Of a stretch of 64,000 bases of DNA, positions 6,266 to 61,000 are shown piece by piece (the first letter of the stretch is position 1; each line of letters begins with the position of its first letter). The stretch lies in the NCBI GenBank assembly GCA_030704615.1, contig CM060733.1, forward strand, positions 46,500,001 to 46,564,000, read 5' to 3'. The stretch comes from Takakia lepidozioides (taxonomy: Eukaryota > Plantae > Bryophyta). The notes under the pieces were generated by a model. That model was not told where the DNA came from, did no database searches, and saw only the letters and a list, made by a program, of their open reading frames with translations. A program made the position numbers and the translations under genes.

Positions 6266-6302
6266 TGCTTGTAAATTGAAGGCATAATGTTTTGGCTACC
6301 AC

Positions 6303-19207: not shown

Positions 19208-19848
19208 CCACAGAGTCCCCCCGAGTCGTGCCAAGGTAAAAATAAAATAAAATAAAAAATATAAATATAAAAGCATTTGAGAGCGGGAAACAACCTACAG
19301 GGAGGTTATAATAACAGGCTTTCCTCGTTTGTGTCCCAGAACCCTAAAGGATGACGGAGAGACTAGACGGGCCGGCCCAGAGTGAAGGCATCCTCCACCC
19401 GTCTTAATTCACGGCGGGGAGGGAAGTCGGGTATTCCCATTAGCCCGGCCCGGGCTGGGGTGGCCGGCTCCAAAGCTCGAGAACTCTGCGCAGGGGTTTG
19501 CCTTCGGAGCCCGTCTTTGCGAGCGCGAGTGCGAGATCATGCCCCTTTTGGCGATCTGCTGCGCGCACTCCTGGATGTCTGTGTTCAAGCTTGTGAATCC
19601 CTCGGCAGTTTTCGATTTTAAGAGGAAATAGACCAACAGAAAGACTACCGAGGGAGTAATGGATGTCCCCAGTTACCGCATCGTGCATAGCCTATATACT
19701 CCATAGTTTGCACACCATAAGGCGGGGACTATATCATTTGCTGCAAAAGAGAGTGTTGGATCCGAGGAAAGGCTCAGTGTGAGGCGGGGGTTTGGGTAGC
19801 TTCGATCGGATCACTCCATTTTGTTTTTGAGGGAGGAAGCAGGCGCTG

Positions 19849-36209: not shown

Positions 36210-36475
36210 TTTCTAGAGGGAGAGAGAGGGGGAGAGAGGGGGAGAGAGAGAGGGAGAGGGAGACAGGGTGCATGAAAAAAAAAAAAAAAAAAAAAAAAAG
36301 AGGAGGGGGGGGGGGACTGAGCAGCAGAAGCTGCTCAGTCAGTCCCCCCACCCCCACCTTCTTTTTTGTTTTTTTCTCCTCTCGCTCGCTCTCTCTCTCT
36401 CTCTCCCCCTCTCTCTCCCTCTCCCTCTCTCTGTCCCTCTCTCCGTCTTTGTCCCTCTCCCTCTCTCTCTCTCAT

Positions 36476-36556
36476 GTTTTTATTTCCATTTTCTCCCATA
36501 AGCTCTATGAGCTTCCCGCGGACATTATAACGCACCATTTCATTTCATTTCATTTC
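36476..36556 (+). mobile_element. LINE 3' tail (same family as 59706-61080)
   Basis: CCCATAAGCTCTATGAGCTTCCCGCGGACATTATAACGCACC(ATTTC)n. Confidence 0.7.
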
Positions 36557-38369
36557 TCTCTTCTCTCTCCCTCTACCCTTGTCCCTCTCTCTCCCTCTGT
36601 TTTGTCACTCCCCACAAAAAGGAACAAAGGAGAGAGGGAGAGGGAGAGCGCCTACCTCTGTGGCGTCGGCGTTGCTACCTACGGCGCGTGTCCCCACCCC
36701 CGGAAGGCCTCTCTCCCCCGCTCCGCTGCGCCTCTCTCCCTCTCTTGTGTTGTTGCTTCTCCCGCCTCTGCACGGCTTTCCTACCACCCAGGGGACAGAG
36801 GTGTTAGCACCCTCTTAGGGTTTGGAGAGGAAGAGTGGAAGTGAGAGAAAGAGGGAGCTTACCAGCGGGGTTGGAGCGGCGCTAGGGCGTCTCCGCGTGG
36901 CGACCACCTCGCGCTCAAGACGAGGTTAGTTTTTCCTCCACACTCTCCCCTACACTCTCAGCCCTGTCCCTCCCAAAGCAGAAAAGAAAACAAGGGGGGG
37001 GGGGGGGGGGGGGGGGAAGAGCAGGTGCTTCAAGCACTTAGAAAAAAAAAGACGATTTGCCACGCCCGGCCGTCGCATGTTGGCGCCCCGCCCTTTTTTT
37101 TTAATGTACATTGAAGCTTGCCACGCCCGGCCGTCGCAGCGTGCGACCCCCCGGCGTGGCAGGGTCAAAAAACCTGTCGCATGATGCGACGCTGGGTAGT
37201 GGCATGAATCATGGCAGGGCGTCACATGCCCAGGCTCCCCCTTGTATGTTGGGCAAGCAGGGGTCACTTTTTGGGGTTTAGGGTTTAGGGCCTTTTGGGG
37301 TTCATAGGTTTTGTTTTTTGTTTTTTTTGTGTCATGCCTTCTCAAGGCAGGACTACGGAAAGGGTTCAGCCGCATGAATGATCTGCATTTTTTTTTTTTT
37401 TCCCAGGCCCTTGGGCAATGTTGGACTGGTCATTTTGGGATTTTTTGTTTTTCTTTTTAGTATTTTTTTGATACTGGGTTCTGGAGTTTGAATTTTGTAG
37501 GGTCACTACGGCCTCCCGACGTTGGGGCGTAGAGACCCCTTGCTATTGTAGGGTGGAAAAGGGACATAGGCTTTTTTTTGCCAACGAGTTTTGAGAAATG
37601 AAAGTGCTGGTTGTGTGTATTAATTAGAATGCGATGGTGAGGAAACATCGACCCGTCTCCCTCGAGGATGGGGAGGCGGTACCAGAGATGGAATGGGGCC
37701 CAATTCCAACCGTGTTTTGTGGCGAGGAGCGACCCGTTGCACATTGAGGATGGTGGACACAATCGTAGAAGGGACCGGGCCCAATTTCAGGTGATGCGGA
37801 GGATGTTGACACTCTGGGATCCAGTCGGGCGCGCCGCGGGTTGCCCCCTCGTGGACCACCCCGTGGTGAGAGCCCTGCTAGTCTAGAGGCACAATGCCCA
37901 CGCACGTCCACCTTTGACCCCCCCCCCCCAGAGGATTTGGTGCACTAAGTGTTGGGCAATGATACCGCCGGGTGGCACCAGACCACCGAGGCGGCGACCG
38001 CATGTTGTCGAAGAGCATTACAAGAAGAGCCTGATTGCGGATGCGGCAAAGGTGTATTGATGCGTCGTATACTACGCATATTGTAGCCACAACTTGATGC
38101 CCAAGCTCGCAATCACATTGCATGGGAGCATTTCGCGCCGGTCTGCTTGCAAAATTTATGCCGGAGCCTGTGCCTGATGTGACCAGTTGGTTCCCCCAGC
38201 ACCACGTAGACGAGATGCATAGGGTCGAGGGGTATCGTAGGTGTCGCAAGCGTTATGGCCGGCGACGAGCAGGCCCCCCCCCCCCCCCCCCTCCGGTTTC
38301 CTCAGGCTGTCCCCCTGATCCAGTGTCCTCATCTGATTATTCTCCATGCCATACATGCAGTAGCAGCTT

Positions 38370-39124: not shown

Positions 39125-40328
39125 AGAAACAGACGGGGAGCTACTTGCATCATACGAGTTCTCCCGGGATGATTGGGACCTCCGATTATAGGGTAAATGG
39201 GATGTCTATGATAAAAATAAGGTTTCTTTGAGATAAGGATCGCGTAGATGGGCATTGTAGATATTCTCATGATGTACTTTGTATACATCCGATTAATCGA
39301 TTGATTTAAATATTTTTTCTTGTTGCTCGTGTGGGTTGCGACTTTGCATATGTGATCTGAACATACTTATGCACGTGTGGACCAAATATGAGCTTGAACC
39401 AAGTTCATTCAATGGGTCATTCAAGTGTTGAACGCAGCTACGTGTCGTAGAGACGGAAAACTGCATTTCGCCTGCACATGATTTTTTTTTATTCCATTCT
39501 GAAGCCATATGCTTAGTGACAGCATATGCAATGTGCGTGCACAATTTGGGAGTAAACAAAAGTCATTTGGACCCAGAACCATATTTTCTTCTCTCATTTG
39601 CACTCCAAAGTTGAGTTATCTTCAACTTCATGCACTCTTCATAGAGAGTTTTGCAAAAGTGACCCTAGAAACACATTTTATTTTATTTTTCTATTTTGTT
39701 TTTGTCCAATGTTTTGCATGGATGTAGTGGTGCAAATCCCCATATCACATAATAAAATAGAGCCAAAAATAAAATCATTACGCCCCTCAAAACCGCAATC
39801 CTATATTTTCTAAATCCAAATATTTATTTTAAATTCGATTTAATTCAAAATTGGTTCAAGGTGAGTGCGTCGTTGGGGAGGCAATTTATATATATATTGA
39901 ATCTTTTCACATGTAACACATGGGAAAAAATGAAGTTTGAGCCACATCCGTTTGATGGGTGCAATGGCATGAGAGGATTTTCTTTCACATTAATAAACAA
40001 AATTGGTTGATAGGGTGAACGCGTCCTTGGGGGGGCAAATGATTTTTTTTAGGTTTGAACTTTGCATGCGTGACGTTGCGCACATACATGTAATTACTGA
40101 ATGACATATTTGATGTATGCACACATTGAAGGTTTTTGTTTGCATTTCGCTTATGATAAATTATATGGTTGCAAGGACACATTATAATAAATGCCCGTAT
40201 GTTCATTTGTTCATATCAGGACTTTGTCCCTCCCTTCCCGGTTCTTTCTCATGGCACCCCATCCGAAAACAACCCAAGTACATCAGGTGGGAGCAATGGG
40301 CGAGACGCTGCCCCCACGGTACTGAACG

Positions 40329-42680
40329 ATGATGACGATGACAGTGACAGTGACAACAACAATGAGGATGGAATTAACCAGGATGCAAGCCGTGGAGGAT
40401 CTCTTAATGCATCACGTGGGCGCTGATGCATCTGATGGAGAGGAAACCCGGCCAATCAATGATCTGGATATGGCCCCCTCAAATGACATGGAGAGGGAGG
40501 CGAGAACTCCCTTATATGAAGAGGCGAAAGTGAGTCGACTTACAACAATCTTACTTTTGCTCAATCTTCAAATTCGATTTGGCATAAGTAATGTTGGGAT
40601 GTCTGCCATAATGCGAACTATTGCGGACTATATCCTTGCTCCACACTTGAAACCCAAGATGCCACGGTCGCGGAAAGAGTCGCGCGAAGTCTTGGACTTT
40701 GTGGGGATGGGCTATAAGATTTTTCATGCATGTCTATGTGATAAAACCTTATACTACGGAGATGATTTGCGTCTAACCAAGTGTCCAAAGTGCAAGAAAG
40801 ACCGATATCGAGATGATGTCCAAGGGAAAAAAAGTACCACGCAAGATATAAGCGTCATTCCCCCTCACATTGAAATTATTTTCTTTAATCTTTTCAATGC
40901 ATGTAAAGTGTATTCCACAAAGTTTAGGGTTTAGATAGTAGTACTCATGCAATATCTGATTGTGACTTTGGAAGGAATGAGTAATATTAGCGACGTTTGG
41001 TGTGATCTTTATTTTCCTAATAACGGAGATGGTGCATAAAGGGAAAGATATAAGGGTGTTGTATTATGTGTGCTAATGGGATGATTACATGTGGGGGACG
41101 TGGGGTACTTCATCCTAAAAATGCATTACTTTTCGATCATCCTGCGATTGAAGGCACAGTACCGAAGCCCCACATTGGCTGTTCTGATAAGATGACACGC
41201 CTCGCATCGGAGCCCCCCAAGAAAGGTGTGTAGGCCACAAGATTCACAAGCATGGAGGCATACTGAAGAGATGTGGCATTTTCTCTTGGAGGACCCACGA
41301 CATGTCCACCTCGGCTTCTCCTCGGATGGGGTCAACCCGTACTCTGTCCAGTCATTCCACTTGGCCGGTGACCATGGTGAACTACAACATCCCTCCGTAT
41401 CTTTCAATAAAAAAGAGCCACATCATGTTGGCTGCCATTGTACCAGGTGAGTGTTCCCATTTCATTCTTATTATTCCCTTGGACTTTACATTAATCTTCC
41501 GATCTCTGGCGCAATTCGGATGCAAGATTGATGAGTGACAGAATCATGGAGTAAGATGTGTAATTCATTATGTAGTATAATCATATTGGTGGAGCATTGA
41601 AACAATGATGTGAATGTCTCATAGGGAAAAAACAAGTGGCAAACATGGACACGTACTTGCGACCTCTAGTTGATGAACTTAAGCAGCTATGGAGGGGGGT
41701 CCCGGCATTAGATGCTTCACTTGACCCTATGGCCGGACAATCTTTTCAGATGAGAGACATCTTGTTTTGGACAATGCATGATTATCCAGGTATATTATGT
41801 TCCCCATGAAGAACCCGCGTACATTCACTTATCAAGGCCAGATAATATCGATGAGGATTGGGATTGATTGAAGTAGCGTCGATAGTCTTGTGCACCTTAG
41901 TTGGGTAGATGACATTATGGGCCATGCACATGATAACTTTTTGTCTTTGCTAAAGTGGCGGGATGTGTACAGGACTAACGGTTCGCTCGGGGCTAAGCAC
42001 CAAAGGGTACCATGCATGCTTGCATTGTGGCGATGATCTTGATGCACATAGCTCCCGCCATCTTCACAAGATGGTGTATCCGAACTATCGCAAGTTTCTT
42101 CCTATGAGCCATCGATGGAGAAGAAGAGAAAAACACTTGTTTGATGGCAAAGAGGAAGTACGTCCCCCCCCTGTGACACCATCCGGGCAGTTTTGGGAGG
42201 ACCGATGGAAGAAGGCCCATGCAGGCACGGTCGGTGAAGTAGACGTGCCCGGCATGAAGCGACTTTCAATCTTCTACGAGTTGTCATATTGGGCGGTACA
42301 TATTCCACAAAAACACCATCAATATCATTATGCATGCATGTGATATTGCACATTTTGTATGAGTTACATTGTCACTTTCATGTCAAAATATTTGTGTAAG
42401 TATTTGCGGGTGGGAGTATATGTAGGACCTGAAGATTCGTCATCTTCTAGATCCTATGCATATTGAGAATAATGTTTGCTCGTCCCTTTTTTCGGGTTCT
42501 TCATGGCACGCCGGCAAAGAAGGGAGTAGCTGCAAAAGCAGATTCTCTCGGTGTTAGAAAGGAGCTTGAAGAGCAGGGTCGCATGCGCCGTCTATGGGCC
42601 GAACAAAATGGTGTGGACCCAAAGGGTGTTGTATGGTGGAAGTATAGGCGCGCATCTTGGGATTTGCCATCGAAATAATA
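40329..42680 (+). pseudogene. CACTA Tnp2/Transposase_21-family transposase, intron-containing, degenerate
   Basis: TPLYE...LLNLQ ... IFHAC..DKTLY ... KCPKCKKDRY; DSQAW ... DPRHVHLGFSSDGVNPY; STWPV...YNIPP; MDTYLRPLVDELKQLW; WTMHDYPG; KGYHACLHC; LSIFYELSYW; HLLDPMHIE. Confidence 0.92.
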
Positions 42681-44964
42681 AGACGGTATTGTACCGTTCA
42701 GAACGAGGCCCCGAGATAGCATGAATAATTTGTTCTTAAATATATTGAGACCCAAAATATGTTGTGAGAATGGTTCGCTTGCGAAACAAATCAAACGGTT
42801 GGGATTTGCCATTGAAATAGTAAGTCCTCCGTCTTTCCCCAGAAAAGTACTTCAAGCTTTCGGGTGTGTGTCGGGTATCTGTCTGGAGTTGCACTCTCAT
42901 TCGACTCTATTTGTCTAGAGTTTCACAATCATGGCGCTCTGCATTTGACAACTACTAAAGGTTGGAAAAGTAATAGAGAAACAATTAGTTATTGTATTAG
43001 TCGTGGAATGACCATTCACAGAATATTATTACTACCAATTCTTCCAAGAGAAAGTGCTAACATGAGTGGGAAACTTAACCACTGAATGGGCCGTGAAGTA
43101 GTACTATGGGGAAACTCCCCCATAACCGTACGAAACCTGCAAACCAACTACCAAGGTAGACTGATAGTCTAGACGATAGTACTATTGGTTGCGAGGTTCG
43201 ATGAAAAGAGAGGAGTAGTGGAACTTAGTCCGCATTGACGAATGAATCATAATATTAAGTTTCTTATTATTATTATTTAAATTTTAGGGTACGCAGTCTT
43301 TTCGATTGTTAAGGACTAATGCAACTTCTTCCACCATTCTTGTATATATTAATAAGAATATTGATGAAAAATAATCATAAATTTTAACAGGTCTATGAAT
43401 GGCAATTCCACATCATCCACGACTATAGCACTAATGCAAAAATCCGTATAACATTGTCCCGATCTTAGGTGCTGGGAAACCCAGAATCCAATGAAGATTT
43501 CGTGAGCTGAAGTATCGAGCTAGACCATACATATAAAACCAGATATATTCATTATTTTCACTTGCGAAACCCTATTGGTAGATATACTTCGCTGCCGACT
43601 ACCGAGGATCCATGAAAAGAGGGGAGGATTGACGTTCACTATTAAAAATTACCTTTTGGTATTATTTACATGTTTTGAATTTGATGGTATGTGGTCTTTT
43701 TGATTGGAACCTCTTCCACGCTTGTTGTAGAGGACAACCAAGTCATAAAACCGATACCGTCGGAAAATCAAACAATAGGTAACAATTTTATTTGCTTCCT
43801 TAAACCTCAGATTCTACGTTGAGTTTTTTAATGCCTAACAAAACATTTGTTCTAATAATAATTGTGGTTATAACAATTTCCCAATTCTGCCTCATGTTTG
43901 ATTCACAACTGACATTCATGTTTCCAGTGTCTATCTTTCTTGAAATAGTGGCATCTCGTGGTTTCCTTGTTTATGGGTTAATGTTCTCTATCCCGTGGTG
44001 GATAATCATCTCGTGGCCTTTGATAACGATTACCCATATTGTATCGCATTGGTCCATCCGGTCCTCCCCGTCGGACTTGGATTTGGACTTGGACTTGGAC
44101 TTGGACTTGGTGTACCCCCACCTCTCGTGTGTACCCACTTTTCTTGGCCCGTTGATTGTAAATACAATGAATCATGTTTTGGATGTGACAAAGGCAGTAA
44201 AATATTAAAATAACATGAAACATTCGGAAGAGGTACTAGGGTAGTACTATAAGGTTTGGGGTGTAACTAGAGAAGTGCAATAAGGTTTGGGTTTACGGTA
44301 AAGGTAAGGGTTTAGGGTTTGGATTTAGGGTACAAAGGGACAAACATATGTGATGGACTCACACTCGGTAGAATTAAGAAATGGTTGAGGAATTTGATAT
44401 CCCTGTAATCATTCTATTATACCTTATCCAACAAAAGAAAATATTAAAAGAGCATGAAATATTGAGAAGAGGTAACATGGTAGTACAATAAGGTTTGGAG
44501 TGTAACTAGGGTAGTATATAACACAATTTTAATTAATTCTGGACTTTTGGCTTAAATCCGGACCCAACTTAATATATATTTGAATTAAAATTAATTAATA
44601 ATATTAATAATATCATGGTGTAATGTGTGATTGAACTTTGTGAAATTACAGGTGATGTCATACTTGTTTCAAAATGTGTCATATAAGAGGTCCATTTGAC
44701 ATTGAAGTACTTGTGAAGTAGCGGTACTGAACAATTCATTGAACATCCACTTGGAAGTCGAATAATGTAATATTCCATTATGTAATCATGATAAACAAAT
44801 GGGTCTCATCGAACATGGGGTAGAGACCTACTCTACCATACTCCATACAACTTGCTAGTAATTTTATTGATTGAATCTTCATATCAAGCACAATGTTCAC
44901 ATAAAGGGCTTATGGTAACATGGTCATTTTTGACAAAAACAGAGTAGAAGGGAGGGGTATCCAA

Positions 44965-47900
44965 GTTGATGGCGTTGACGAGCTTCAAAGTAAGCTTAAC
45001 GCATTTAGGCACGTTTAAAAATCTATGAGCAACTGCGACATGGTCGGGCGCAACTAGCTAGGGACACTTTGATGTGCCCTCTCGGAGGGCGTACTGTCAG
45101 TTCAAGATTCCTGGAAGTAGGTCCACGCAGATATAATCAAAGCTAGATTAGACTCATCTGTTAAACTTGGAGGCTGCCCTTGTTGAATATTTGCAAGAGT
45201 TCCAACGAAAGCCTGTCGAGAGTTTAAGGGAGGCTTACACGCGCATGAGACCATTGATAAATGTAACCCAAAGGATTACGGAAGCTCAAGCAGTCCAATT
45301 CTATTATGGGATATTGGACAAGAAGCTGAGGAGAAGGATGCGGGATGCAACTCTCATACATGTGGCCCAACCCACCTTAGCAAACGTATTTTTGCTGGCA
45401 GAGCGGATAGAGCTCAATATGGTGGAGGAGCGAGTGGTCATGGTGGGGTTTGGTCAGGAGACACAATGAAGTGGGGCTCCTAGCCAACAACAACCACTGC
45501 TCCAACGTGCTCAAGGCAACAAGAGGGCTCAGGCGAAGCCCAGGGAAGGGCCGAGAGGATCTCAATTGCAAATGTCACTTCCTTCATTCTCAGACCAACA
45601 ACAGTCGGGTGTGACATGTTGGGATTGTGGAGGACCCCATGTTAAGAGAGATTGCCCGGAAAGAGGCAAAGGGCCGGCACAGGCACAACTTACACAACTA
45701 CAATGTGGGCATTATGGCAAGTATGGGCATGAAGAGGCCCATTGTTATGATTTGCATCCTGAGCTACGGCCAGGCCAGTTCCAAGGGAACAATGGTGGCC
45801 GAGGACGAGACAATGTAGTCCAGAGAGGTAGAGGAGGCAGAGGTCGTGGTGGAGGTTGTAACCAAAACCAAAGAGCACAGGGTCAGGGTCAAGGTCATGA
45901 CCAAGGCATGGTGGATAGGCTTGCCCAGCTAGAGCAACGTCTTGCTACCATGGCCACTATTCATGTTGCGCCAGCTCCAAGGCCTGAGGTTCAAGCCTCG
46001 CCTGCACAACCTCCTATGCCTAGGGAAGACCAGATTGGTATGGGCTTCATGTGTGGAGCCACACTTGCAGGACCATTGCATGTGGACTCTGCAGCTGCTG
46101 TCACTCGAGCAGCAACGTGTGCTCCTGAGCCAAGAAGAGCGGATGTGGATTTTGATCCACAAAGAGGGGAAGCAAGTCGGCAGACAAGGCTTCCACAGTC
46201 TTTCACATTGGCTGAGACAATGCCAACTATGCCATCGATGGCACACGCTCGCCCAACTGTATCAGAGGTAGAGCCACGAGTGTCATTGGAGAGAGTTGGT
46301 ATGGCTCGGGAAATGCCAGTGGGTGGTACTGCAAAGCAAGGTGCAGCCAGTACATTGTTGGGGGCGGCTATAGCAATTTGTCAAGCTCCATTGTTTTCTG
46401 CCACGACAATTGCAATGCCGGAGATGCGGACAGCTGCAGTGTTTAGACTGGCAGTTGCACTCTGTGAGAGTGATGATGCATCGACACTATCTGCGGGGAT
46501 AGCGGATCAGATGCAGTGCATGGATGCCATAGATTCAAGGGTGAAGACAGCCACAGCTGCGCCATGGCAAGCGGCAGCTGCAAGGTGGCAGGAGTTGCCA
46601 GCTAGACCAACCATTGAGCATAGTATGGTGACTCCTAGGGTAGTCCTGGTGGACAATCAGAATGGTGTGTTTCAGTTGGGTGGCCCAGCCGGGAGGAGGT
46701 ATAGGCCACTGCGGGTTTTGTTGGACTCGGGAGCACAACCATTGATGTTGGGAAGAGTAGCAATTGTAGGCTTGGGCCTTACAGAGGCGGATTTGGAGCC
46801 TTGCCCTTTCCAAATTCAAACATCTTTGGGCGGTTCAGAGAAGGCACGAGGGATTACACACCATGAGCTCTTCATTCGATTGCAGCCAGATCATCCTACA
46901 GATGGCTCTGTCATGAGAGCTAAAGCCATTGTTACGGTTTCTATGATCCATCGCTACATTCCCAATAAACCGCACTGGGAGTAGTGCACGTCGACCATCC
47001 CCTGATTGCCATTCCGGCCTGTAGGATGCCGTTTCCTCCCAAAAGTCCAAAGTAAAGCCCATCGGGTATAACACAGCCCCACCAACAATCACATCATAAG
47101 ACATCGCATCGGCTGTATTCTCAGGAGTGGTGGCTTGGGGTGGTGAACTCTTGGAGGGCAATAGCAATGCAGATGATAGGCCACCACCTGATGAGGACAA
47201 ACAATTGGCATACAAGGCTTATTTGCTTCCTCATGTGCCTGTTCATATTCCACTATGGGGTACAGTTGGGAATTTGCATCGAATAGCAGACGAGTGTGTG
47301 CACCAAGCATGGCAGGATGCCTATCCATTGGCGAGTGAGGGGGGTTCAGTGACATCACCTGGACCTCCTTAGTTAGCTCCTTTGGATACAGTGCACATTA
47401 CCTGGCAACCACCTGACTCAGGGATTTGTTTGCTAGACCTGTTTGGAGGCATGAGCACTGGGCTTGCAGGAGTGTTGCAAGTTGAGATTAAAGTACAAAA
47501 GTACTTGTATGTGGAGAATGATGAGATAGCTCGGCGTATTTCTATGCGTCACGTTGTCTTGCTCACACACCAGTACCCTGAGTTGCTGCCTCTCTCAGCA
47601 ATTCAAAAGTACCAAAAAGCCTTGCCAGCAGACATTACCATGTTGGGGGCGGATGATTTGGGCCGGCATGGTGCCATTGACTTGGTGATAGCCGGATGGC
47701 CTTGCCAAGGACACTCTCCCGCAGGTCATGGGAATGGCTTGCATGATGCACGATCGCATTTGTTTTGGGAGATGTTGAGAGTGTTGCGTGACTTGTAGAC
47801 GAGGCAAGTGCAACCTCTAGCCTATATCTTGGAGAATGTTCCTCTTATGGGGGACTCTCGGGCCAGGGTTATGGCCAGTGTGCATCAGGTGCGGTCTTGG

Positions 47901-50780
47901 ATTGGATCGACGATGCTATTGGATGCAGCAGCGGTGGGATCATGCGCGCATCGACCTTGATTGTGGTGGACCAATCTTGCACCACCAGAGCTGCTCAAAA
48001 GAGCATATGATTCCATTCAACAGCCACCCAATCTCACGGTTGAGGGCATTTTGGACCAAGGGAGGCAACCACAGAGGGTGCGACATGATGACTGTCCACC
48101 TCTAGCAGTTGTCAATCGAGTGGGGCAGCCACGTACAGCCTTGCCTACGCTCATAAGCTTTCCCTCGTCTCATGCTTTTCGAGACAATGGTCCTGGGTTG
48201 ATTTGGGATAGTATGCTACAGCAATTGGTGGAGCCCAATGCGGATGAGCGCGAGCAGGCAATGGGGTTTGCCACGGGTACTACAGCTGTGCCAGCTCTGT
48301 CAGAGGCATCACGACGCCAGGTGTTGGGTCAGGCAATGGATCTCAATTGCATGATATGGGTCATTGGCTTGTGCATGGCTGAGCAACGGAGATTGCAAGC
48401 ATTGGTGGCTACTTCTGCACTTCCATTGGATATTGCACCATCTCTGCCAACCGGAACGTGAGTGGGGGCGAGCACAGGATCATGGGGTGCAAACACCCAT
48501 GGCAGATGTGGGATGAGATGCGGAAAGAGAGAGTCCTTAGATCTCTCAAGCAGCAATATGAGGAGTGGGGAGAGCCATACACTGAGGATCAGTTAGAGGC
48601 CAAGGTGACCAATGTTTTTGAAGAGGTTGAGAATGTTTCTTCCCCAGAGGATGTTCTCAAGGTGGCTATGGCGGAGCAAGTGGAGGCTACGCCACAGTCA
48701 GATTGGGCGGACAAGGCCCAAAAGGTTGCTATCTAGCAACCAAAGGATTCGTCTCCTACCTCCAAGCCTGGTGTACCCAAGGTTGCAGTCATTGAGGACA
48801 ATTGGGAACCAGATGTTGGACCTACAGTCACCGGAGGAGAGAGACAGAGGATCCAGCGATTTCTAAGGGCTTATAGAAATTGCTTTGTCTTCGGTTTGAA
48901 GGATTTGGGGAGTTTGAAGGGTCAGGAGATTCGTATTGATTTGACAAGTGACACGCCAATCTTTCGAAGGCCCTACCGGTATAGTGACATGGAGAGGTCA
49001 TTGATCTAGTCACGGACTATGAAGTTGTTCGAAGCTGGATTGGTGGAGTTGTCAGGCGGGGAATATGCCTCGGCAACGGTGATGCCAGCTAAGAAGGATA
49101 TCTATGGCAATTGGACAGAAAGAAGGAAGTGTGGGGACTATCGTCCTGTGAACCGTCAGACTAAGTCCCATAGATATGCCATGCCAACTCCAGAGGAAAT
49201 TTTTGATGCCATTGGGCATGCGAAGGTGTTTAGCACATTGGACTTGCGATCCGGTTACCACCAGTTGCCAATAAAAAAGGCTGACAAGCAAAAGATGGCA
49301 TTCTGGGGGATTAACCAACATGGGAATGATTGCTTGTACCAATGGCGCTTCCTACCGTTTGGGTTGAAGAATGCTCCTACAGAGTTTCAGAGGGTTATGG
49401 ATAGGATTCTCGCGGGGCTAGACTTTGTCCGGTGTTACATTGATGACATCATTATCTTTAGTGCTACGGTTGAGGAGCATGAGAGACACCTTCAGGTGGT
49501 GTTTGAGCGCTTGAGAACGCATGGGTTGAAATTGCACCCTGGGAAGTGCAAGTTCTTCCACAACCAGATTGAGTATCTGGGCCACATGATATACCCTGGA
49601 GGATTGGGTGTTCAAAAGACGAAGGTGGAGGCCATTGCACGCATTCCACGCCCCATAGATGTTAGCAAAGTTCGTGTTTTCATGGGGTTGACAAACTACT
49701 ATCGACGGTTTGTCAAGGAATTTAACAACATTGCAAATGCTCTTACCAAGTTGACCAAGGTGGGTTAGGAGTGGCAGTGGGAGGAGGAGCAGGAGGAAGC
49801 CTTTGAGGAATTCAAGGCTCGATTGACTTCTGCATCTATTCTGAGGCGGCCTATTCGGGGGCGGTCTTTCCAGCTACATACGGATTGGAGTATGCTGGGA
49901 ATTGGAGCAGTGCTCACACAGGTGGATGACAAGGGAAGAGAGTTCGTAGTGGCATATGCCAGCCACTCGAACAATGATGCCGATGCGAAATATAGCTCAT
50001 ATGAAGGGGAGTGTCTAGCTGCGATAGGGGCAATGACACATTTCAGATGCTACCTCTATGGCAACCTCTTCACCCTTGTCACGGATCACCAACCATTGAA
50101 ATGGTTGATGGAGTCAGACAAGCTTACAGGGAAGCTTGCATGGTGGGCACTTATGCCTCAAGAGTACGACTTCCAGGTGGTGCATCGAGCCGGTATAGTC
50201 AATCGGGATGCAGATGGGTTGAGTCGTAATCCATGTACGAGTGAGCATGATGATACTGGTGCTCGGTGGCATGGTGAGACGAATGAGGAGATGGTGCCAG
50301 GATGGCATGCATCTGTCTTTTTGTGCATCCTAGCAATGGGAGCTCAAGCTGGTCCATCCCATAACATTGGTCATGTAGATGGTGTGCATGACGATCCGGA
50401 GATCAGTGAGGAGCTTGGTGGTGCTAAGGATGTGCATGAAGATGCAGCAGTGTTGACCTACCTTCGCCAAGAGGTTCAAGTGGGAAGGGACTCACCTACT
50501 CCGAGTATGGGAGGATAGACGAGTGAGGATTGTGCCTCATCCAACACAACGAGCGCGATTGGTACGTCATGCCCATGAGGAGTTGGGACATTTTGGGGTG
50601 CAGCGCACTCATAGTTTGCTGCAAGGACAGTACTTGTGGCGAGGCATGCATACAGAGGTGCAACAGTTAGTGACAAGGTGCATGGTGTGTGATAGAGTGC
50701 GGGCTTCTTTCAATGCATCTACTCCACAATTGCATCTTTTACCCATTATGGGTTTGGGCTATCGTTGGAGTCTTGACTTC
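44965..50780 (+). mobile_element. Ty3/Gypsy LTR-retrotransposon internal region: gag-PR-DNMT-RT-RNaseH-INT(N), degenerate, no LTRs retained
   Basis: Zinc knuckle CWDCGGPHVKRDC; protease LLDSGA; RT CGDYRPVN, LDLRSGYHQ, PFGLKNAP, YIDDII; RNase H LHTDWS, EGECLA, TDHQPL, ADGLSR; integrase HEELGHFG..CMVC and WSLDF, cut at ~50780. Confidence 0.95.
47382..48400 (+). pseudogene. C5-cytosine DNA methyltransferase catalytic domain inside the Gypsy pol region
   Basis: One frame, motifs in canonical order: I LLDLFGGMSTG, II YVEND, III ADIT, IV IAGWPCQGHS, V DARSHLFWE, VI ILENV, VIII AHRP*LWWTN, IX EREQAMGF, X QVLGQAMD. Interrupted by stops at 47796 and 47958. Confidence 0.9.
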
Positions 50781-51332
50781 GCAAAACTTAGTATGAACAG
50801 TAGAACAAATAATAGATTGACAAACATTATCTTTGTTAGTCCATTCATCTTCATCTTCAGCATTCTCCTTGGGGCCTCTCCAGTAATAATTTCTAGAAGC
50901 TTTTTGGCACGAAGCATGACACTCATATGAAATTTCCACAATTGGAAATTTTCTTCATTGAACTTCTCAACGGTGACCAGGTCTCTAGGATCATTCTTGG
51001 TTGCCATGCTTGCTAAAGGGACTCTAGAAGAAATTGATCTCTAAAACAAATCTATGTACCACAAAACTAGCGTTTCTAACATACTGTCAAGAACGTGAGT
51101 AACTGTAGTAACAAAAGAAACAAGTCTGCCTATGGAAGTAATGGTCGTGGGCCCATAACCTATTGAAAACACTGACTTAGGACAGACTTGAGTTAGTCAA
51201 GAGATGCAAGAAGATCTTTACTCATAACTAAGTCACAGATCTAGCAAGCCTCATGCGCTCTGTATGGAATTGAGATACAACTACCTTGCAGGGTGTGACA
51301 CTAAATATGCAACGAGTATGCAACCCTCAACA
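50781..51332 (-). mobile_element. Ty1/Copia 5' fragment: LTR, PBS and gag start
   Basis: LTR TGTTG...CAATA (51332-51161); PBS GGTTATGGGCCC (half-tRNA-Met type); gag VEKFNEENFQLWKFHM..ML.AKKLLEIITGE. Confidence 0.85.
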
Positions 51333-51788: not shown

Positions 51789-52157
51789 CTACTCAATTGA
51801 AAAATTGACAATCACAACCTTATGGAGGGTTTGAGGAATATTCAAAACTAGGAACAACTTTCCGTTGATTAGATTTGGGGGATACCTTATCTGGCGCCAC
51901 ATTCGGCTTGCAGGATGATAGAGCGTGATCAAATCTGCGTTCCTAGTAAACCAAAAGAAATATTTTTCCTTTTGCAAAGGGATTTGCTTACAGAGTTCCA
52001 AAAACTGAGGACTAGAAGGGAGGGAGTCCCATCGCTTGCACACTGACCTGAAGCGAGACAGACTTGGAACTGGCAAGTATGCCAAGACTACGTCTAATAA
52101 GTCGCAAGGCAACGTACTCCACAACTGCTCGTCTAGCTTCTCAGTATAATGATCCAT
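51789..52157 (-). pseudogene. F-box protein, N-terminal part, apparently truncated
   Basis: LDEQLWSTLPCDLLDVVLAYLPVPSLSRFRSVCKRWDSL..S..F followed by LYHPASRMW. The ORF ends just before the LTR debris. Confidence 0.8.
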
Positions 52158-55087
52158 AGCCTCTTGAATTGCACACAAACAAAAGCAAAGACCCACAAGA
52201 CTCAAGCCTGCAATCAAACTGACTTTCCAGTGCTCAGCGATGATCGTGTCGGTGGCTAACATACAATCACACAGTTTGCTGTGAAGGGCATACTTGTGTT
52301 GGGCAGCACCATGAAAAATTGAGGTCCAAAGAAGAAGTACTTGGTTCAGCCCACAGTGGGTTATACACACATGAACCAACACAAGTTTGAGAAAAGCATG
52401 CGGCTCTATTTTGTGTCCAAGTTTGCTGATTTTACATATCAGTTCACACTCCAGAGCTTTTTATGGGACAACTTTCTATTCTGTGCCAACTATTTCTTTT
52501 GTTACATTGTTTACTATGGATTGAGCTCCATAGTATCTTTTAGGACTGGTGTACCAAAAACAATGGATGGAGAAGCTATCATGGAAGAGGACCAGTGCAT
52601 AATTTTATGAGTTAATAGACAGTGACACAGAAGTCAACAGGCTGAAAGCCCGTAAAACAAGGAAACAGGATGACAAAAGGTCGTAGAAACAACAAGTAAA
52701 ATCGTAAACGTGAAGAGCTAATCATGAACACTAATTGTTAGCGGAAGTGGAATCAGAAGCCTTCGAAGAAGTCTGGACGTGCTTCCAATTGATTTCCCGA
52801 TCGAACACAGTGGATGGTAGCACGAAGGGCTCTCCAGTAGTGGTTGGGAGATTGTTTGTTCCACGGTGGTCCCTTGAAGCGCTGTAGCATATGATCTTTT
52901 GATGCACCTAGCTGGTTGCTCTGAAGGTAGCATAGAGCGAATCTGCATTGCGGGGAGCTATCTGGACGTCGGCACATACTTGCCTAGGCTTTTCTCGAAT
53001 CAATTCCTAGCTCTAGGTAATAGATTAGAGACAAAAGGGTAGAGACTGAGTAAGTTCGTCCTTAGAAAGTTTTGATGCATCCGGCTTTCCAAAAGGTGCC
53101 AAAGAGTGGAACCCCTGATGGTTACGAAAATTGGGCAAGGCGAGGCTCTTTGTTTGGTGGATTGATCGTAGTTGAGGAGCAAGTTCATGGTTGAAAGATT
53201 GACTTAAATAAGAGCCTCTTCCCATTGTGCCCTCTTTCAGGTGAATCTGACACTGATGTATATGATTAATAGAACTGCTTTGCTTTGCTTTGCTGCATTG
53301 TTTCCACTAGTTTGATGGCTTGGTCCCATCATCCATGTCAACCATAGATTGATGGACCTATCCCTCTGCTCCATCCTACCTTTGCTGTCTTCCTTACCTG
53401 TCTTTTGCAGACCTATGACGATGCATCACCAACACCAACAAAACTTTCTCTTTCACCTCTCACAGATGTTTCTGTCTTGGAAGGTTTCCAGAAAGTGTCT
53501 ATGACCACCAGGCTTACCAACCATCATCGCATGTTTTTTTCCACTGACTCCACTCTAGATGAAGCCAGCTGCTTGCAAATCAGTTTGGGTAAAAAACACA
53601 GGTGGTCTGCCGCTGTAGAAGACGTGTCAGTCCTTCACAGAACCATTCCAGGAACCATCACCAGTACTTCTTTGCCCTTTTCTAGAGTATACATGGCAGT
53701 AGGCTATTCAGGATGCCCCTTACTGATTCTACTTAAATCTGACTTGATTTGTTTTCTTCTTTGGCTTACTGGTGGCCTTTAAGTTCTGTGAAAGTTACTT
53801 CTGCTAAAGACGTGGTAACCATGTCGCGAATGTGGCAGTACCAGGTGAGACCTCAGCCTCTGCCCACCATATTCACCCCAAACAATGGAGTGCAAATTAA
53901 TGTATTGGGTTGGTATTCAAATTGGTTTGGGGGGCCCGAAGTATTACTCATTACACCATATTTCTCAGGATTTAAGACCTTCCAATGTATATGGGGTCCT
54001 GGGTATTCTCCCCTCATCTTGACGAGCCCACATGATGCAGAGTACCACCTGTACCATATGCCTCATCTCGATCACATACTCTTGACCAGAAAGGGTTTCC
54101 TCGTAGAGAATTGCATGTATGACTGGTTTGCAGTATCGTCCACTCAATGCAACTCCAAAGGCCATTCAAAACGGCTCAGGCATTGTCCCAGGAAAGCTCA
54201 GATGATTGTTGAGATTCTACCATTGTAAGATGATGTACTGCAGTTCAACATATGCAGTATATTGGAACGGGAAAATCAAGTTGTGGAGTGAATTTCCTGG
54301 GGGGTGGCAGAAAGTGCAGTGTCTTCCTCAGTCATCTGCCTCACTTTGAGGGGAGATTGGCGCCTGGTGTAGATACATGGGCAACTGGACCTTCCGCTGG
54401 CAAAGCAGGCTCATCAAAACAATCACATTCGGGCTCCTTGGTAGTCAGTATCTCATAGATAACCGTTTGCGCAATGCCTGGTTGCAGTGGTAGAATAACT
54501 GTTGCAAATGTCTGTTTGATATCTGAGCTGCCTGGTGTTGCTGGATTCGAATCTGTGCTCCATACGTCCATTTCTTGCAATGTGACGCTTGAATGCCCTG
54601 GGGTTTGGTGAGTAATCTTCCAAACCTCCCTGGTCGGTGTGTCAATAGAAGGATTAGGTAGTGATTCTTCTGAAGGGTAATCAATCAGTGGACAATTGCA
54701 GTCCAGGTAATCAATCACTGGACACTCGCAGTCCAGGGCAACAAAGTCTCCTCCCCTGGGACTCCATATTGGGTTGCGGGTCTGCACATCATACTCATCA
54801 ATTGAGAAAGAGCAAAGGAGGAAGAAGCCACATATTGCCCACAGGAGAACCCATGAGATATAGTAAGACACTAGAACACATCAAACTGCACATGTTGGAG
54901 GAAGATGGAGGACCTCATGCAGTTAAGCTGCTGAAGCACTTTGGGTCCTGATAACTATGGCATCTCGCAGGGAGGAAACGGCCAAGATGAGAGCATGACA
55001 AGGGGGAGGTTGGGATGTAGTGATCATGTACATGTCCGTCCAAAACCAACACTGGGTCTGTGAATAGGTGGGGTCCTGCATTGAGCT

Positions 55088-58000
55088 CAAGACACTCTGG
55101 ATTTCCACCCAGCAAAAAAGAGAACCTCAGCATTCTCAGCATCTAGACTTTGCTTTGGCATAGCCCATAGACCACATACCTGGTTAGAACAGAACAGAAA
55201 ACTGGGGGAATGGAGAGCATGCATATAGCTTCCCCTTATGGTTTCAAAGCACTCCTAAAAATCTGGCCCTCCACAGAAAGATCCAGAAGGAAATACGAAA
55301 TGAAATGGAATGGAACTTTATAACCAACGAAAGAAAGGAACCCTATGGAAAGCTGAGAGGGTCATGGACCACAGGAAAAAAGGAGCTGACACACTCTTTT
55401 GTCTAAGAATATCTGAGGACTGAGATTTGCTCAGTGTTGCCTCCATCACCTATTCACTGGCGAGAATTGAACTCTGTCAGCACACAATGGCAATTGCCAG
55501 ACTTTTCCCAGGAGGACATGTATAAGCGACATTTGCTACAAGACATAACATTTTTGAGATTGTCACTTACCCAATTGAGCCTATGGTCTTGACTGTCAGT
55601 TCTGTAGCCCAGATCTTGATATTTTCGAGTGGCCTTGCGATGTGCCCAACAGCATAACAGCAGTGTTGCAAGGAGTGTTCCAAGTATGATCCCTATCAAC
55701 TTTGCCAGAGATCCTGCATCAATGTAGTTCAGAAGTTCAATTAGGGCACCACCTTCTACGGGCAAGCAACTCAAAGTACTAAAAAATGTCATGTGTCCCC
55801 TCATACGACATTTTTTAAAACCATTCATTGTAGTTTTTTTATCTGTGTGTATCAGAAGTAAGTTCTTTCTTGTAGCATTTCATCAAGATGCTTCCTGCTT
55901 GTCTGGATTGCCCAATTTTCAAGAATCACTGGAAATACCGATTGGAGCTAGAGCATTTTTGTTGACAAGCCAGATATTGATGTGAGCGAGGGCAAGTTTT
56001 GGAACAGAAGTGACATTTGTACAGTTTCCAGAGCACGCAAAGTTGCCCATATCATCAACCACGAGGGAGAAATCCACCATTTTCGTCCTGTCAGATCCCT
56101 GCAAGCCTCCACATAAAAGTAAAGTTCTCCAGACGTGTAGGATATCACTCACCACATCCAATCATTTAAGAATGACTAAAAACGATGAGACAAGGTACCC
56201 CAAAAAATGTGACTAACAATTGGAAGTGAGCTAAAGTCTGTCAAGTATGTGCTGGGAGATCTGCAAAATCAAAATTGTAGGAGTTGCAATTTTCATCTGG
56301 ATCCTAGCAAATCTTGACTGATCTAGAAGGCCCCAAGGCTTGGGAGGTCTGCGCAATGCCAGTGGATTCATGTGTTAAATTGCATTGGGTCACGGCTATT
56401 GATGCAAATACGATGAGCACATGTTCTAGGGCAGAGTGGAAAAAGAAGAGGTGGGGACGCACATTCAGAGTCTGATACTTGATGGTGGCCAGAGCGCCAT
56501 TACAATCTTTGGTGGATGCCTGGAACTTAATGCCTTGGCCAATCACAAGAACATTACTGCTATCAACAGGCTGCCATGAACTGGACCCCTGCTGCCTGTA
56601 TGTTGCACTCAAAATAGTAGCATTTGGCAAGGTGACTTGTAGAGTTCCAGAGTTGACTTGCAGGGTTGCCTCCAACAGGTACTGTAGACCATCCCCTGCC
56701 ATACCCATGAAAAACCATGTGCACATCGTCAAGTACAGTGACCCACAACCACTGTTGAAAGAAAAGTTCAAAAGCTGGAGGTTCTTTGCTGCATGACCAT
56801 AGAGAGAGGAGGAGAGGAAGACTCTTGCCGAAGCAAGCCTAACTTATGGTGTCATTTCACCCCCAAGGCCTACTGCCTTCCTTTTGGAAGGTGGAACATT
56901 ACCACACACAAGGCTATACAGTCAGTTAGTTCAATAGTCCAGATACCACTCTTCACTCTTTAATAGACACGGATGTGTGATCACCTCGGGTATCCAGCTC
57001 ATCTGGGTCTCCAACATTGATTGCTGGCAAGGGTACAAGAATGCTGCCCGTGGGGCTGGACATCAACATCTGCGTTGAAGTCATATCCAGACTGGTGGGA
57101 GCAATAATGAAGGGTGGGTCATTCACAGGCTGTACAGTAGTTGAAAGTCTTCGAAAGTCTCCAATTCCCGTAGGATCCACTGCTTTCACAAAAGTTGTAT
57201 CTTGGCCATCAAAATTTTCACTCCTGCAAGCAGAGATGGATGACCTCTCTTTACTTACATATCCTTCAGCACTGAGAGTGAGCTCAACGTCGCAGAGTTT
57301 CTTCTTGTACTTCTACTTATCCCATGGGCGTCCCTCTTTGACTTCACAAGGTTTCTCTTGTTCTTTGTCGAGGGTGAGATTTTGAGGGGTGTGTGGAGGA
57401 AGTTTTGTCCATTCTGCAGATTCATCTCCATTTTGGGATGGAAAAAAAGAAATGTGACCACTCTCCAATCCCAGTGCCTCAAATCTGCCTTTGCATTGAT
57501 CCTGTCATTTCTCAGAAAAACAGTGGGCTGATGAACCCATTGGATGCAACAACTGAGAGTTAACTGTTCAGACCACAAGCATTGTTCCAATCAAAGAGTA
57601 AAAGAGAATGAAAGGCGCACAGACCCTATGTACTGAAGGGCCTGGATAGCTTTGTTTACAGAGTCCACGTTGCCCGAAAAGTGTAGGAAGCCCATGCCAG
57701 CCATGGGTGGTGTACTGGACATATCTGTGGCCATGTCAGGACTATGAACTGGAGATACTGGTCCAATGGTGGTCACGACAGGCTGCCAGGTTGTCTGAAT
57801 GCTAGTCACTGTCTGCCAATACTCAGACATGCCGGCTGCTGGATATATCCGCCCATTTTGTGCATTAACTTCCGCCAATATTATGGTCAAATGATCCGGG
57901 CACGCGACTGCCAAGCTGAGGCCCCTGTCCTATCCCTAAGTTTGAGTCTTCAAATCAAACATGATAATGCAAGATCAGTCTATCTTTGAGCAGCTAACCA

Positions 58001-61000
58001 ACTCAAACTTGAAACAAGATTTTTTTTTTGTTAACTACTAGGTATAGATGGTAAAGATCCAATAGGGACTATCGAATCTCAACAGTTCCCTTGGAAATGC
58101 CAATAACTGTGAACCACATAGTCAACCCTGAAATGGGGAAAGCTTGTCAAAGAAGCCTTCAACATAGAGTTTTGACAACAACATGAAGAAGTGCATACGA
58201 ATGATGTCAACAGGCTATATGGGTACCCCACACAAAACAGGTGCTCACTTAGAAACACGCAAGGGGGTTTCTAAGATGTGGCGATCAAGTTCATCCTGCT
58301 TGTGGGATTAGGTATGCCAAGCTCTGGCTTAAATAGGTGCTAGCTGCAGACATGTGTTTGGCTGATACAATTCTAAAGAGAGCTAAGTTGGACACCAACA
58401 CTGCTGGTGGGCTGCACTGATCTAATTTGTTGCAGAGGGAGAAGAGAACAACCAATTACCAGGCTGAAATGTAATGAATCATCCATCAGACTTGCAGCAG
58501 AATTCCTCCCTCAACGCTCAGACCCGATGCACAGGTGTGGAGTATTTCCTCTCAGGAGAAGTTACTCTGGAGCATGCACAAACTTAATGCCTACTTCTTT
58601 TCGTTTTCTTTATTGCTGGAATGAGCCAAGATGGGGCAAGAGGATGTACCCTGAGGTGGGTAGGGGTTGATCCTCCAAAGTTAGCAATGCAGACCCAGAG
58701 GGCGCTGAGTAAATATAGGGTTGCAACGGCACCACAGAAATGTACACGAACCCAGTATCTGAGGCATTCAAATCATCCAATATAAAGTATACCAAGGAAT
58801 CTGGGCCGATGTAAGTACCATTGGGGGTATAAACCACTGAGGAGCCATTCGCGGTTGCAAACCCATTGCTTGGACCCTGCGGTGAAGCTTCAAAAACATA
58901 GGTGTGGCCATTGCACCTGCCTCATTTTTGGCTTCTTGATTCTAATATTAGGACTTCGCCAGGTGAGTCCTACACGTTAGCTAGCATCTGGCAATGGTAA
59001 TATGTTCTTGTCCCACTCAAGTCCTCCCCCTCCCATGTGTTAGAATTTCAGCATGGCAAGCTAGCTACATCAAGAATCTTTGTGCTCTACTCATTTGTTT
59101 TCTCTGCCCTAGACTCTCTGATGTTTGTTTGGTTCCTTTGCATACTTGCTGAACAACGGTGCTACTTTTGTCTAGCATCTATATAGCTCTCTCCACTAGT
59201 TTCAGGTCACACCTGTGTGGATAGATAGTATGACATTGGTAGAACATTCTTCATGCATCTTTCTTCCCAAGTCAACCTATTCATTGGGTTACTCTGATCT
59301 TGTTTGTTTAAGTGGTGCAGTTTGCACAGATGGCTTGTGCTATTGGCCTCCGAAGCTCAGAAGACCTGATTGGGTCAGAGGGGGACTCTCAATCTCAGTT
59401 CCCCAATCAAGCACTTGGAATAACGACGAACCAGGGAACCAAGCCTGGTCACTTAAATCAAACATTGCTTACCTGGGAAATACCTCCAAGCATTATACTC
59501 ATTTCACTGCCCAAAATATCATTGTCCAGCACAGCAATGTTGACAGGTGTCCCAATCCAAGTCCACGCTGTGTCATCCACAGCCACGGGAGGAATGTGCT
59601 CTGGACATGCAATTATACCCTAAATATGTCAGCAAGTAGTCTTCAAGATAGCCCTTGCTCACAAGTTGCAACTCATGTTTCTGCAATTTGTATATCCTCC
59701 CTGAGACATGAAATGGTACTTTATAACGTCTGTGGGAAGGGCAAAGAACTTATGGGACAATAGGAAGAAGAAACAAGAAAGAGAGAGGGGCCACAAACAG
59801 AAAAGCAACTAAAGCTCAAGGGATTGTCTAAGAGTCGATGCTTCATGCCGGTAAGCTGCCAAGCAATTCTGATCCTCGAAAAGGAAGACCTCTGTGAGAG
59901 ATTGGGCATCCCAGAGTAGACAGTTGAATCTCACACGTAAAAGTGGTGCCCCCAACCACCAGCCACCACAACCATGCAACTACAACTCAACTTTGAAAGA
60001 AAGAATGAAAGAAATATGTTACATACACAGGAAGCCCATTGGGCACAGTAGAGAAATAACATGAAATAGTATTATACAACGTCCACGGAGAGCTCAAAGA
60101 GCTTCTGGGACAGAAATGAAATGAAATGGTACTTTATAACGTCCGACAAAGAAACAAGAAAGAGAAATGAAATGAAAGAACGAACAAAAGAAATTTACTA
60201 CGTCGATGGGAGGGCACAAGGACCCAAGGGTCACAGTAGAATATGCAGTAGAACCACAGAAAACTGAAAAATCCACAGAACAACTAGACCCACACATAGA
60301 CAGAGTACTCATGGGGGTAAGCTGCTAAGAGAAATGAAATGAGATGAAATGGTACTTTATAACGTCCAGAAAGAAAGAAAAGAAGAGCGAAAATAAATGA
60401 ATTTATGAAGAAATCTATAACATCCAGAGGAAGCTCAAAGAGCTTACAGGAAGAAAAAGGGCAGAAAGTAAGAAAGCAGGGTCCTCAAACGGAAAGGAAA
60501 ATGAAATGAAATGGTACTTCATAACGTCCGGCAAAAGCTCAAAGAGCTTATGGGACAAAAGGAAGCAAGAAAACAATAAAGAGAGCAGGGCCACAAGCAA
60601 GAAAAAGATGAACTGAAATTATTCTTCACAACATTCGCAAGAAGCTCAAACATCTTATGGGACGAGGAAGAAAGAAACAAGAGAGAGGGGGCACAAACAG
60701 CCCAAAATCAACTAAGCTCAAGGGATTGTCTATCAGTCTATGCTTCATGCAGGTAAGCTGCCAAGCATTTCTGAACCTCATAATTGAAGAGAAATGAAAT
60801 GAAATGGTGCTTTATAATGTCCGCGGAAAGCTCATAGAAATATGGGACAAAATGGAAATGAAATGAAATGAAATGGTGATTTATAACGTCCGCGGAAAGC
60901 TCATAGAGCTTATGGGACAAAATGGAAGAAAACATGAGAGAGGAAACAAAAACCAGAGCCAGAGATAAAAACTATTGTTCCAGTGATTGTCTAAGGGTGA

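Follow-up and report, generated by a model that had tools for sequence, protein, structure and literature searches.

A 64,000-nucleotide stretch of the Takakia lepidozioides genome (GenBank assembly GCA_030704615.1, contig CM060733.1, positions 46,500,001 to 46,564,000), hereafter called the window, carries on its plus strand a decayed Ty3/Gypsy retrotransposon in which a C5 cytosine DNA methyltransferase (DNMT) lies between the protease (PR) and the reverse transcriptase (RT). Our explanation is that this is a dead copy of a multicopy family with the layout Gag-PR-DNMT, a leaky stop codon, and RT-RNase H (RH)-integrase (INT)-PHD, and that in this family the DNMT would be packaged at the level of Gag and would methylate newly made complementary DNA (cDNA). 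We give this explanation as a whole a probability of about 0.6.

Three-frame translation of the plus strand gave a Gag-like part, the retropepsin motif LLDSGA, the C5-methyltransferase, an RT with YIDD, RNase H, and an integrase zinc finger, and Pfam profiles matched DNA_methylase, RVT_1, RT_RNaseH, and Integrase_H2C2 (coordinates are those of the window unless a locus is named). The placement between retropepsin and RT on one strand, claimed in an earlier sequence-only reading of this DNA, was borne out, with LLDSGA upstream at 46718 and YIDD downstream at 49436. When the DNMT was used as a query with its stops read as X, proteins of Marchantia polymorpha were found to be 56 to 69% identical, others matched from Calypogeia fissa and Sphagnum fallax, and further DNMT-bearing proteins came from M. 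paleacea, Riccia sorocarpa, and S. troendelagicum. The Marchantia, Calypogeia, and Sphagnum homologues of 56 to 67% identity have identical neighbors around the DNMT (Gag-PR-DNMT), and one Marchantia 90% cluster holds 18 members, several of them with open Gag-PR-DNMT frames of 1278 to 1281 amino acids. Among the metagenome loci, which are the best 80 of 311, the order was Gag-PR-DNMT-RT-RH-INT-PHD wherever the contig reached. In runs that carry the label of the host species, contig depth summed to 0.9 to 1.8 × 10^5 over the DNMT and to 54 to 83 over the unique flank, a quantity that does not equal copy number; the runs X1 and X2 may be the source sample. Many DNMT-bearing copies exist in the host, and the larger family that the dead copy had been taken to imply was recovered, with the DNMT in the same place in dozens of loci from several genera and with open frames in Marchantia.

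A conserved stop codon follows the methyltransferase

Locus L049 has two open frames in the same register, Gag-PR-DNMT (976-5085 of the locus, 1369 codons) and RT-RH-INT-PHD (5086-8229, 1047 codons), parted by a single TAG that is followed by CAG TTA; the first Met after it is codon 117, inside RT. The window has TAG CAA CCA at 48734-48742 (+), preceded by the tail of open reading frame (ORF) 1 (48393-48733, +), in which the frame changes near 48460-48480 in this copy, DNMT and RT sharing a frame in most relatives. A stop with CAR-YY lies 96 to 103 codons ahead of RT in 27 of the 30 copies of clade A, to which the window copy belongs (19 TAG and 8 TAA), and the three others are deleted or shifted at that place. 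The exact CAR-YYA is found in the window, L046, L049, L059, and L085, and 22 Sphagnum-type copies have C or T at +6; the clade-A contexts (CAACCA, CAGTTA, CAATCA, CAACCC) vary almost only within the consensus of tobacco mosaic virus (TMV) type. In clade B, a stop with CAR-YY was present in none of 27 copies, which run through in one frame. No variant with a share of at least 30% was seen at 48734-48742 in the host-species runs (summed depth about 1.2 × 10^5), and of 59 proteins with a Gag-PR-DNMT or PR-DNMT layout, 48 stop 55 to 180 residues past the DNMT. The public Marchantia and Sphagnum gene models P0009, P0011, and P0039 skip this stretch, probably by a false intron.

Since 27 of 30 clade-A copies keep a stop and CAR-YY at this place, the one at 48734 is a conserved feature of the family and no sign of decay. 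Six other stops (45467, 47370, 47796, 47958, 49007, and 49766) belong to the decay that the sequence-only reading had described; the single open gag-PR-DNMT-RT-RH-INT frame that it had expected in full-length copies exists only in sister groups, the conserved stop splitting Gag-PR-DNMT from RT-RH-INT-PHD in clade A.

UAG-CAR-YYA is the TMV readthrough consensus, for which 32% readthrough is given in a plant reporter (PMC2754532), and stems 7 to 12 nucleotides downstream stimulate readthrough in other systems (PMC3159437). The family shares with these systems both the hexamer and a stem, predicted here, about 9 to 12 nucleotides past the stop (PMC2754532, PMC3159437). A long-range RNA stem 3' of the stop was predicted in five of five cassettes folded; in the window it spans 48745-48853 (+), and its arm pairing of -24.2 kcal/mol was the best among 223 control windows. 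The three open-frame copies L049, L059, and L085 gave stem z-scores of -2.7, -3.0, and -4.5. Pairing of a copy's own arms reached -14 to -26 kcal/mol versus -6 to -13 kcal/mol between two lineages, i.e., the arms co-vary, the stem register between copies being without base-for-base alignment. On this sequence context, the conserved stop is very probably read through by ribosomes.

Readthrough would put Gag-PR-DNMT well above Pol and, since the DNMT is encoded ahead of the leaky stop, the methyltransferase is likely made at the level of Gag, above RT and integrase. The protease would then free it inside the particle; such release and packaging appear quite probable. The packaged enzyme would methylate new cDNA, which we favor, somewhat less firmly, as its main substrate, and the likely gain would be an arriving copy that resembles methylated repeat DNA of the host. 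The integrase of the family of the window copy carries a PHD finger, a predicted histone H3 reader, which may guide integration at the target. Alternatively, the family enzyme might be active but work inside the nucleus, with integrated copies or host chromatin rather than particle cDNA as its target. Output at the level of Gag far exceeds the enzyme need of one cDNA, and effects on the host methylome are discussed in PMC5890265, both of which would suit such an action, but the DNMT has no attached chromatin-reader domain and is fused to Gag or Pol in every architecture, an indication of the particle; we regard nuclear action as unlikely.

Somewhat less likely still is that the stop is the true end of ORF1 and that Pol depends on reinitiation or has an RNA of its own, spliced or subgenomic. 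An AUG does stand at codon 3 past the stop in six Sphagnum-type copies, at codon 5 in L046, and at codon 14 in L059, and the Sphagnum-type +6 base deviates from CAR-YYA; on the other hand, the first Met comes no earlier than codon 85 in the window and codon 117 in L049 and L085, and frame, CAR-YY, and the co-varying stem are kept across lineages despite differing linker peptides.

The methyltransferase is DNMT3-like and under purifying selection

The DNMT (47412-48392, +) follows a conserved linker to the protease (47107-47411, +), and both lie in a continuous match to residues 759-1229 of the Marchantia protein P0004 (47046-48479, 57% identity). As the sequence-only reading had stated, it is a full C5-methyltransferase with its motifs in order in one plus-strand frame (47100-48458): motif I DLFGG, IV PCQ (Cys at 47703), VI ENV (47832), VIII, IX, and X, with an E-value of 3.6e-12 against Pfam PF00145. 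The domain is unpermuted and, also as stated there, without introns and without PWWP, ADD, or other companion domains. Of the decay stops, 47370 just precedes the domain (it lies in the linker), 47796 falls within it, and 47958 falls in motif VIII.

The top PDB sequence match was DNMT3A (E 1e-10), and in a PDB profile search DNMT3A scored 5e-18 versus 1e-5 for M.HhaI. A single-sequence fold prediction was set aside (predicted local distance difference test, pLDDT, 34), and the model of an open relative, P0147 (68% identical, pLDDT 91.5), was compared with known structures. It aligned with DNMT3A over 272 residues (Z 29.1, root-mean-square deviation 2.5, 22 to 26% identity), whereas bacterial enzymes reached Z-scores of at most 25.2 (4dkj 25.2, M.HhaI 24.1). 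These PDB ranks and the modeled fold make a DNMT3-like enzyme likely; the DNMT tree holds phage-borne outgroups only, plant DNMT3, other host DNMT3, and Klebsormidium sequences being absent from the trees.

The catalytic Cys and the Glu of motif VI are kept in 54 of 54 domains, many relatives having ECQ instead of PCQ. The ratio of nonsynonymous to synonymous substitution rates (dN/dS) of the DNMT, a check proposed by the sequence-only reading, was 0.11 for L049/L059 (RT 0.03) and 0.13 for L046/L049, spanning 0.09 to 0.13 among L046, L049, and L059. The DNMT is under purifying selection in the family, and it is very probably catalytically active on DNA. We find it quite improbable that the domain serves some other purpose instead, for example to bind or flip cytosines or to methylate RNA or an RNA:DNA hybrid. 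The absence of DNA activity of a related element in yeast (KnitGypsy-Dnmt3, PMC5890265) and the ECQ variant would agree with this idea, and the invariant Cys and Glu, together with a fold nearest to DNMT3A/B (Z 29), speak against it.

The methyltransferase is a family trait

The family searches were anchored on the DNMT, apart from one anchored on RT. In the latter, 24 of 150 proteins scanned carried the DNMT, concentrated among single-domain close relatives, and no full-length close relative lacking it was shown among the 150, P0413, P0442, P0444, and P0472 missing the relevant part. In viral contigs, a single query gave no match and an alignment query gave distant phage-type methyltransferases only. 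Quick trees of DNMT and RT, likewise proposed as a check, each recovered the clade of the window copy with a Shimodaira-Hasegawa-like approximate likelihood ratio (SH-aLRT) support of 99 and were congruent: patristic distances over 38 elements correlated with r = 0.73, 12 supported splits were identical, and all 5 conflicts lay within the algal group. As to the class of the element, the domain order Gag-PR-RT-RH-INT with a DDE (rve) integrase is that of Ty3/Gypsy, and ORF2 of L049 had Ty3 Gag-Pol as its top PDB match (E 4e-98).

The DNMT is therefore a family trait and not a one-off. The rival idea that a host DNMT retrocopy or a nested element landed in this single copy, to which one might be led by the nest of broken elements in the region (CACTA-like at 40326-43085, Copia gag at 50784), is refuted by the shared position across dozens of loci in several genera, by target-site duplications that flank the whole element, and by the congruent trees; neither of the tests that the sequence-only reading had named (family members without the DNMT; a duplication around the DNMT itself or a near-exact match to a host gene) refuted its view.

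Observations that weigh against the proposed explanation

A number of observations pull in the other direction. The 27 stop-bearing copies are mostly near-identical and of Sphagnum type, so that there are only four to five independent contexts, and the Sphagnum-type copies have CAACCC, with TAA in eight and an AUG three codons past the stop. The two decayed copies reached stem z-scores of just -0.79 (window) and -0.35 (L042), and 37 of 178 control windows equaled the arm pairing of L046. Sister groups carry the DNMT in the RT frame or between RNase H and integrase, so dosage at the level of Gag is not required lineage-wide. KnitGypsy-Dnmt3 gave no methylation in yeast, a result that its authors deem inconclusive (PMC5890265). 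Recent Sphagnum-type copies had dN/dS of 0.5 to 0.7, reflecting decay after insertion, and the synonymous rate was saturated in comparisons with the window copy. One host contig (run X2) skips 47357-48458, almost exactly the DNMT, a weak case with 24 letters on its short side. Finally, against a window background of 0.52, the observed/expected CpG ratio (0.44 to 0.70) showed no difference, and it cannot tell methylation by the element from that by the host; since plant hosts methylate all repeats, CpG or CHG depletion is uninformative as evidence.

Ends and repeats of full-length relatives

Full-length relatives measure 8.6 to 9.7 kb, start with TGTCAY and end with CRACA (TG..CA). A 4-bp target duplication, within the 4-5 bp of Ty3/Gypsy elements, flanked the whole element in 6 of 11 loci tested; L052 had 3 of 4 bases, and the right ends of four loci were not firmly mapped. 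The sequence-only reading had foreseen long terminal repeats (LTRs), but the relatives lack two whole direct LTRs and have split repeats of the form A-coding-B-A-B or A-coding-B. The 3' part B-A-B was present in 9 loci, and the whole A-coding-B-A-B in L065, L075, L076, L080, L086, and L108. A purine tract precedes B, and no tRNA-type (TGG-type) primer site was found after A in the 7 loci read by eye. A tyrosine-recombinase element of the DIRS/PAT class is ruled out by the rve integrase and the 4-bp duplication.

The inner B/A junction consists of the right end and the left end joined by two bases (CACGACA-NN-TGTCAYG), also in L049 and L059. Because this spacing is that of processed integrase ends, opening of a circular intermediate is plausible, and there is an even chance that the ends derive from such an internal att-att junction, with the integrase opening a circular or circularized intermediate. 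Random opening of a two-LTR circle at either junction was rejected: the mirror form A-B-A-coding-B, with a same-strand B ahead of the 5' A repeat, occurred in 0 of the 28 loci that have this repeat (four of them with less than 400 nucleotides of context). Use of the two junctions is therefore not random. L050 (6012-14651) is an A-coding-B copy with a 4-bp duplication that arose either by B-B recombination or by integration of a one-repeat circle.

Comparison with known elements

The closest known element is KnitGypsy-Dnmt3 of Klebsormidium nitens, whose Dnmt3-related DNMT belongs to the Pol ORF and has Ka/Ks below 0.2, and whose repeats are arranged as in DIRS (PMC5890265). It shares with our family the Gypsy domain set, an unpermuted intron-less Dnmt3-related DNMT, purifying selection, and A-coding-B-A-B repeats, and differs in that it comes from one charophyte and has the DNMT within the RT ORF, whereas here the hosts are land plants and the DNMT precedes a conserved leaky-type stop. 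In the family of the window copy, clade A lacks a DNMT in one ORF with RT and RNase H, an arrangement found in clade B, P0101, and Closterium P0123. The Klebsormidium link drawn in the sequence-only reading thus holds for DNMT type, repeats, and range of selection, and our family works like KnitGypsy-Dnmt3 and is likely its land-plant branch; among the DNMT protein matches, no sequence named Klebsormidium was returned. Since a Gypsy-borne DNMT3 with such repeats has been published for a charophyte, the kind of element is already known, and PMC12344493 and bioRxiv 10.64898/2026.05.21.726589 refer to streptophyte elements, citing PMC5890265.

SymbioDIRS-Dnmt3 of Symbiodinium likewise joins a Dnmt3-type domain to A-B-A-B repeats, and it methylates CG in yeast, but it has a tyrosine recombinase and a DIRS RT, in contrast to the DDE integrase, TG..CA ends, and 4-bp duplication found here (PMC5890265). 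In the EpiLTRs of Cymbomonas and Euglena, an LTR element encodes a cytosine DNMT together with a histone reader; their enzyme is a sister of DNMT4, they add Dam and a chromodomain, and they are set apart from streptophyte Gypsy-DNMT3 (bioRxiv 10.64898/2026.05.21.726589). An in-frame stop between structural and polymerase frames is known from Tca2 and VdLTRE5, which are fungal, Copia-type, and use UGA without CARYYA, whereas here protease and DNMT precede the stop (PMC3441728). With PpDNMT3b (PMC6453930) and animal DNMT3A/B the element enzyme shares fold and motif order; unlike them, it lacks introns and PWWP/ADD, is 22 to 26% identical to DNMT3A, and sits inside a polyprotein.

Marchantia and Sphagnum are not mentioned in the searchable parts of PMC5890265, and no such element is named in the searchable parts of PMC6317226, PMC6453930, PMC3441728, 10.1101/2022.10.24.513474, and 10.1101/363937. 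Our literature search gave no account of land-plant presence, a leaky stop, or an att junction, which subscription papers, repeat databases, or the PMC5890265 supplement could hold; within the same limits, the earlier statement that no land-plant family had been characterized stands. What we did not find in print is the presence in land plants and the mode of expression.

The window copy and its surroundings

By homology to full-length relatives, the window copy is truncated at both ends and runs from 45188/45191 to 50783/50788 (+). Contigs of other copies continue past both breaks, from the loose end at 45191 into gag and from 50783 into integrase. The segment 44965-45190 is excluded from the element by the homology start at 45188-45191 and by these loose ends, so the start at 44965 given in the sequence-only reading was too far upstream; at the other end, homology stops at 50783-50788 (50780 in that reading). 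No terminal repeat of this copy was left in the window.

Gag, truncated at its 5' end (45191-46717, +; stop 45467), has two zinc-knuckle-like motifs and a spacer and matches residues 160-709 of P0004 (tblastn, 42%); the spacer of the relative P0310 resembled DUF4100 clusters (score 0.91, the family being on 13 to 17% of members), which is a lead only. The retropepsin with its catalytic LLDSGA and the following part (46718-46934, +) corresponds to Asp_protease_2 matches in relatives. Its C-terminal piece, missing from the plus strand, is encoded on the minus strand at 46935-47106 (P0004 residues 711-758, 75%), so the inversion at about 46935-47106 is real, and the opposite-strand joint 46934/47106 was found in other contigs. 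Downstream lie RT (48860-49765, +; stops 49007 and 49766; PF00078, E 7.2e-33), RNase H (49769-50239, +; PF17917, E 1.3e-29), and, in a shifted frame, the zinc finger of the integrase and the beginning of its core (50457-50783, +; PF17921, E 6.4e-15), cut at 50783. In-frame stops, frame changes near 48470 (48460-48480) and near 50470, and the inversion agree with the earlier verdict of a dead copy. Loose ends at 49005 in runs X2, X5, and X6 continue without the stop at 49007, and differences between X1 and the window are skewed (A>G 174 and T>C 114 versus 85 and 76), which fits decay of the window copy by deamination.

Outside the element, a Copia-type gag fragment abuts the 3' break (50784-51040, -; DUF4219, E 0.0036, and Retrotran_gag_3, E 0.007, both below the curated cut-off). 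Just upstream of the element lies a separate high-depth repeat (43784-44919) with a tandem joint in other contigs (44903 back to 44166), and before it a decayed CACTA-like transposase (40326-43085, Transposase_21). A GAAAT-rich repeat family occurs in both orientations at 59700-61050, 36470-36560, and 62720-62920. The intervals 19831-23058, 51789-52460, 56307-63794, 16873-17451, and 30593-31222 hold genes of host type, with an F-box or with GEX2-like Ig repeats, besides further relics (DUF7869 and the zf-RVT of a long interspersed nuclear element); a WD40/STRAP-like gene is presumably among the former. The GEX2 Ig domain and the F-box mark the host as a land plant, and the nearest named relatives of the element point to a bryophyte.

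A wider lineage and its meaning

Closterium (P0123), P0101, and some algae-like records have the same DNMT type ahead of RT in one frame; in Hariotina, Haematococcus, and many further records it is placed between RNase H and integrase. This green-algal Gypsy group (P0040, P0041, P0134, and P0144 among others) has a PHD finger, and some of its polyproteins exceed 3000 amino acids; we found no published account of this group. Clade B (L071-L110) has the ECQ motif, shares its metagenome assemblies with clade A, and has its own A and B repeats with the same junction. The family proteins P0167, P0143, and P0346 carry bacterial labels (Obscuribacterales, Minisyncoccia, Leptolyngbya) but likely come from plant or algal DNA that entered metagenome bins. 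In view of the shared motifs, a single capture and a later move to the other site are simpler to assume than two captures. We tentatively consider, as a possibility with the odds against it, an ancient Ty3 lineage of green plants (chlorophytes, Zygnematophyceae, liverworts, and mosses) in which one DNMT3-derived enzyme moved between two polyprotein sites, and whose land-plant branch would combine Gag-level loading by readthrough, methylation of its own cDNA, and opening of a circle at the att-att junction by a DDE integrase.

It has been asked since 2018 why a transposon should carry the enzyme that usually silences it, and the hosts known so far do not lend themselves easily to experiment. 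With its leaky stop, the family is predicted to make DNMT in large excess over RT, a constraint on function, and the combination of split repeats and DDE-type ends suggests a mode of replication intermediate between those of LTR and DIRS elements. Such repeats would hide the family from LTR finders, and its copies can inflate the number of DNMT genes counted in a bryophyte genome. Were the ancient-lineage reading true, the open Gag-PR-DNMT copies of Marchantia would be unrecognized de novo methyltransferases in a model plant. Since the same lineage is present in Marchantia and Sphagnum, annotated there as hypothetical proteins, methylome data and genetics are applicable, and Marchantia makes the function of an element-borne DNMT testable.

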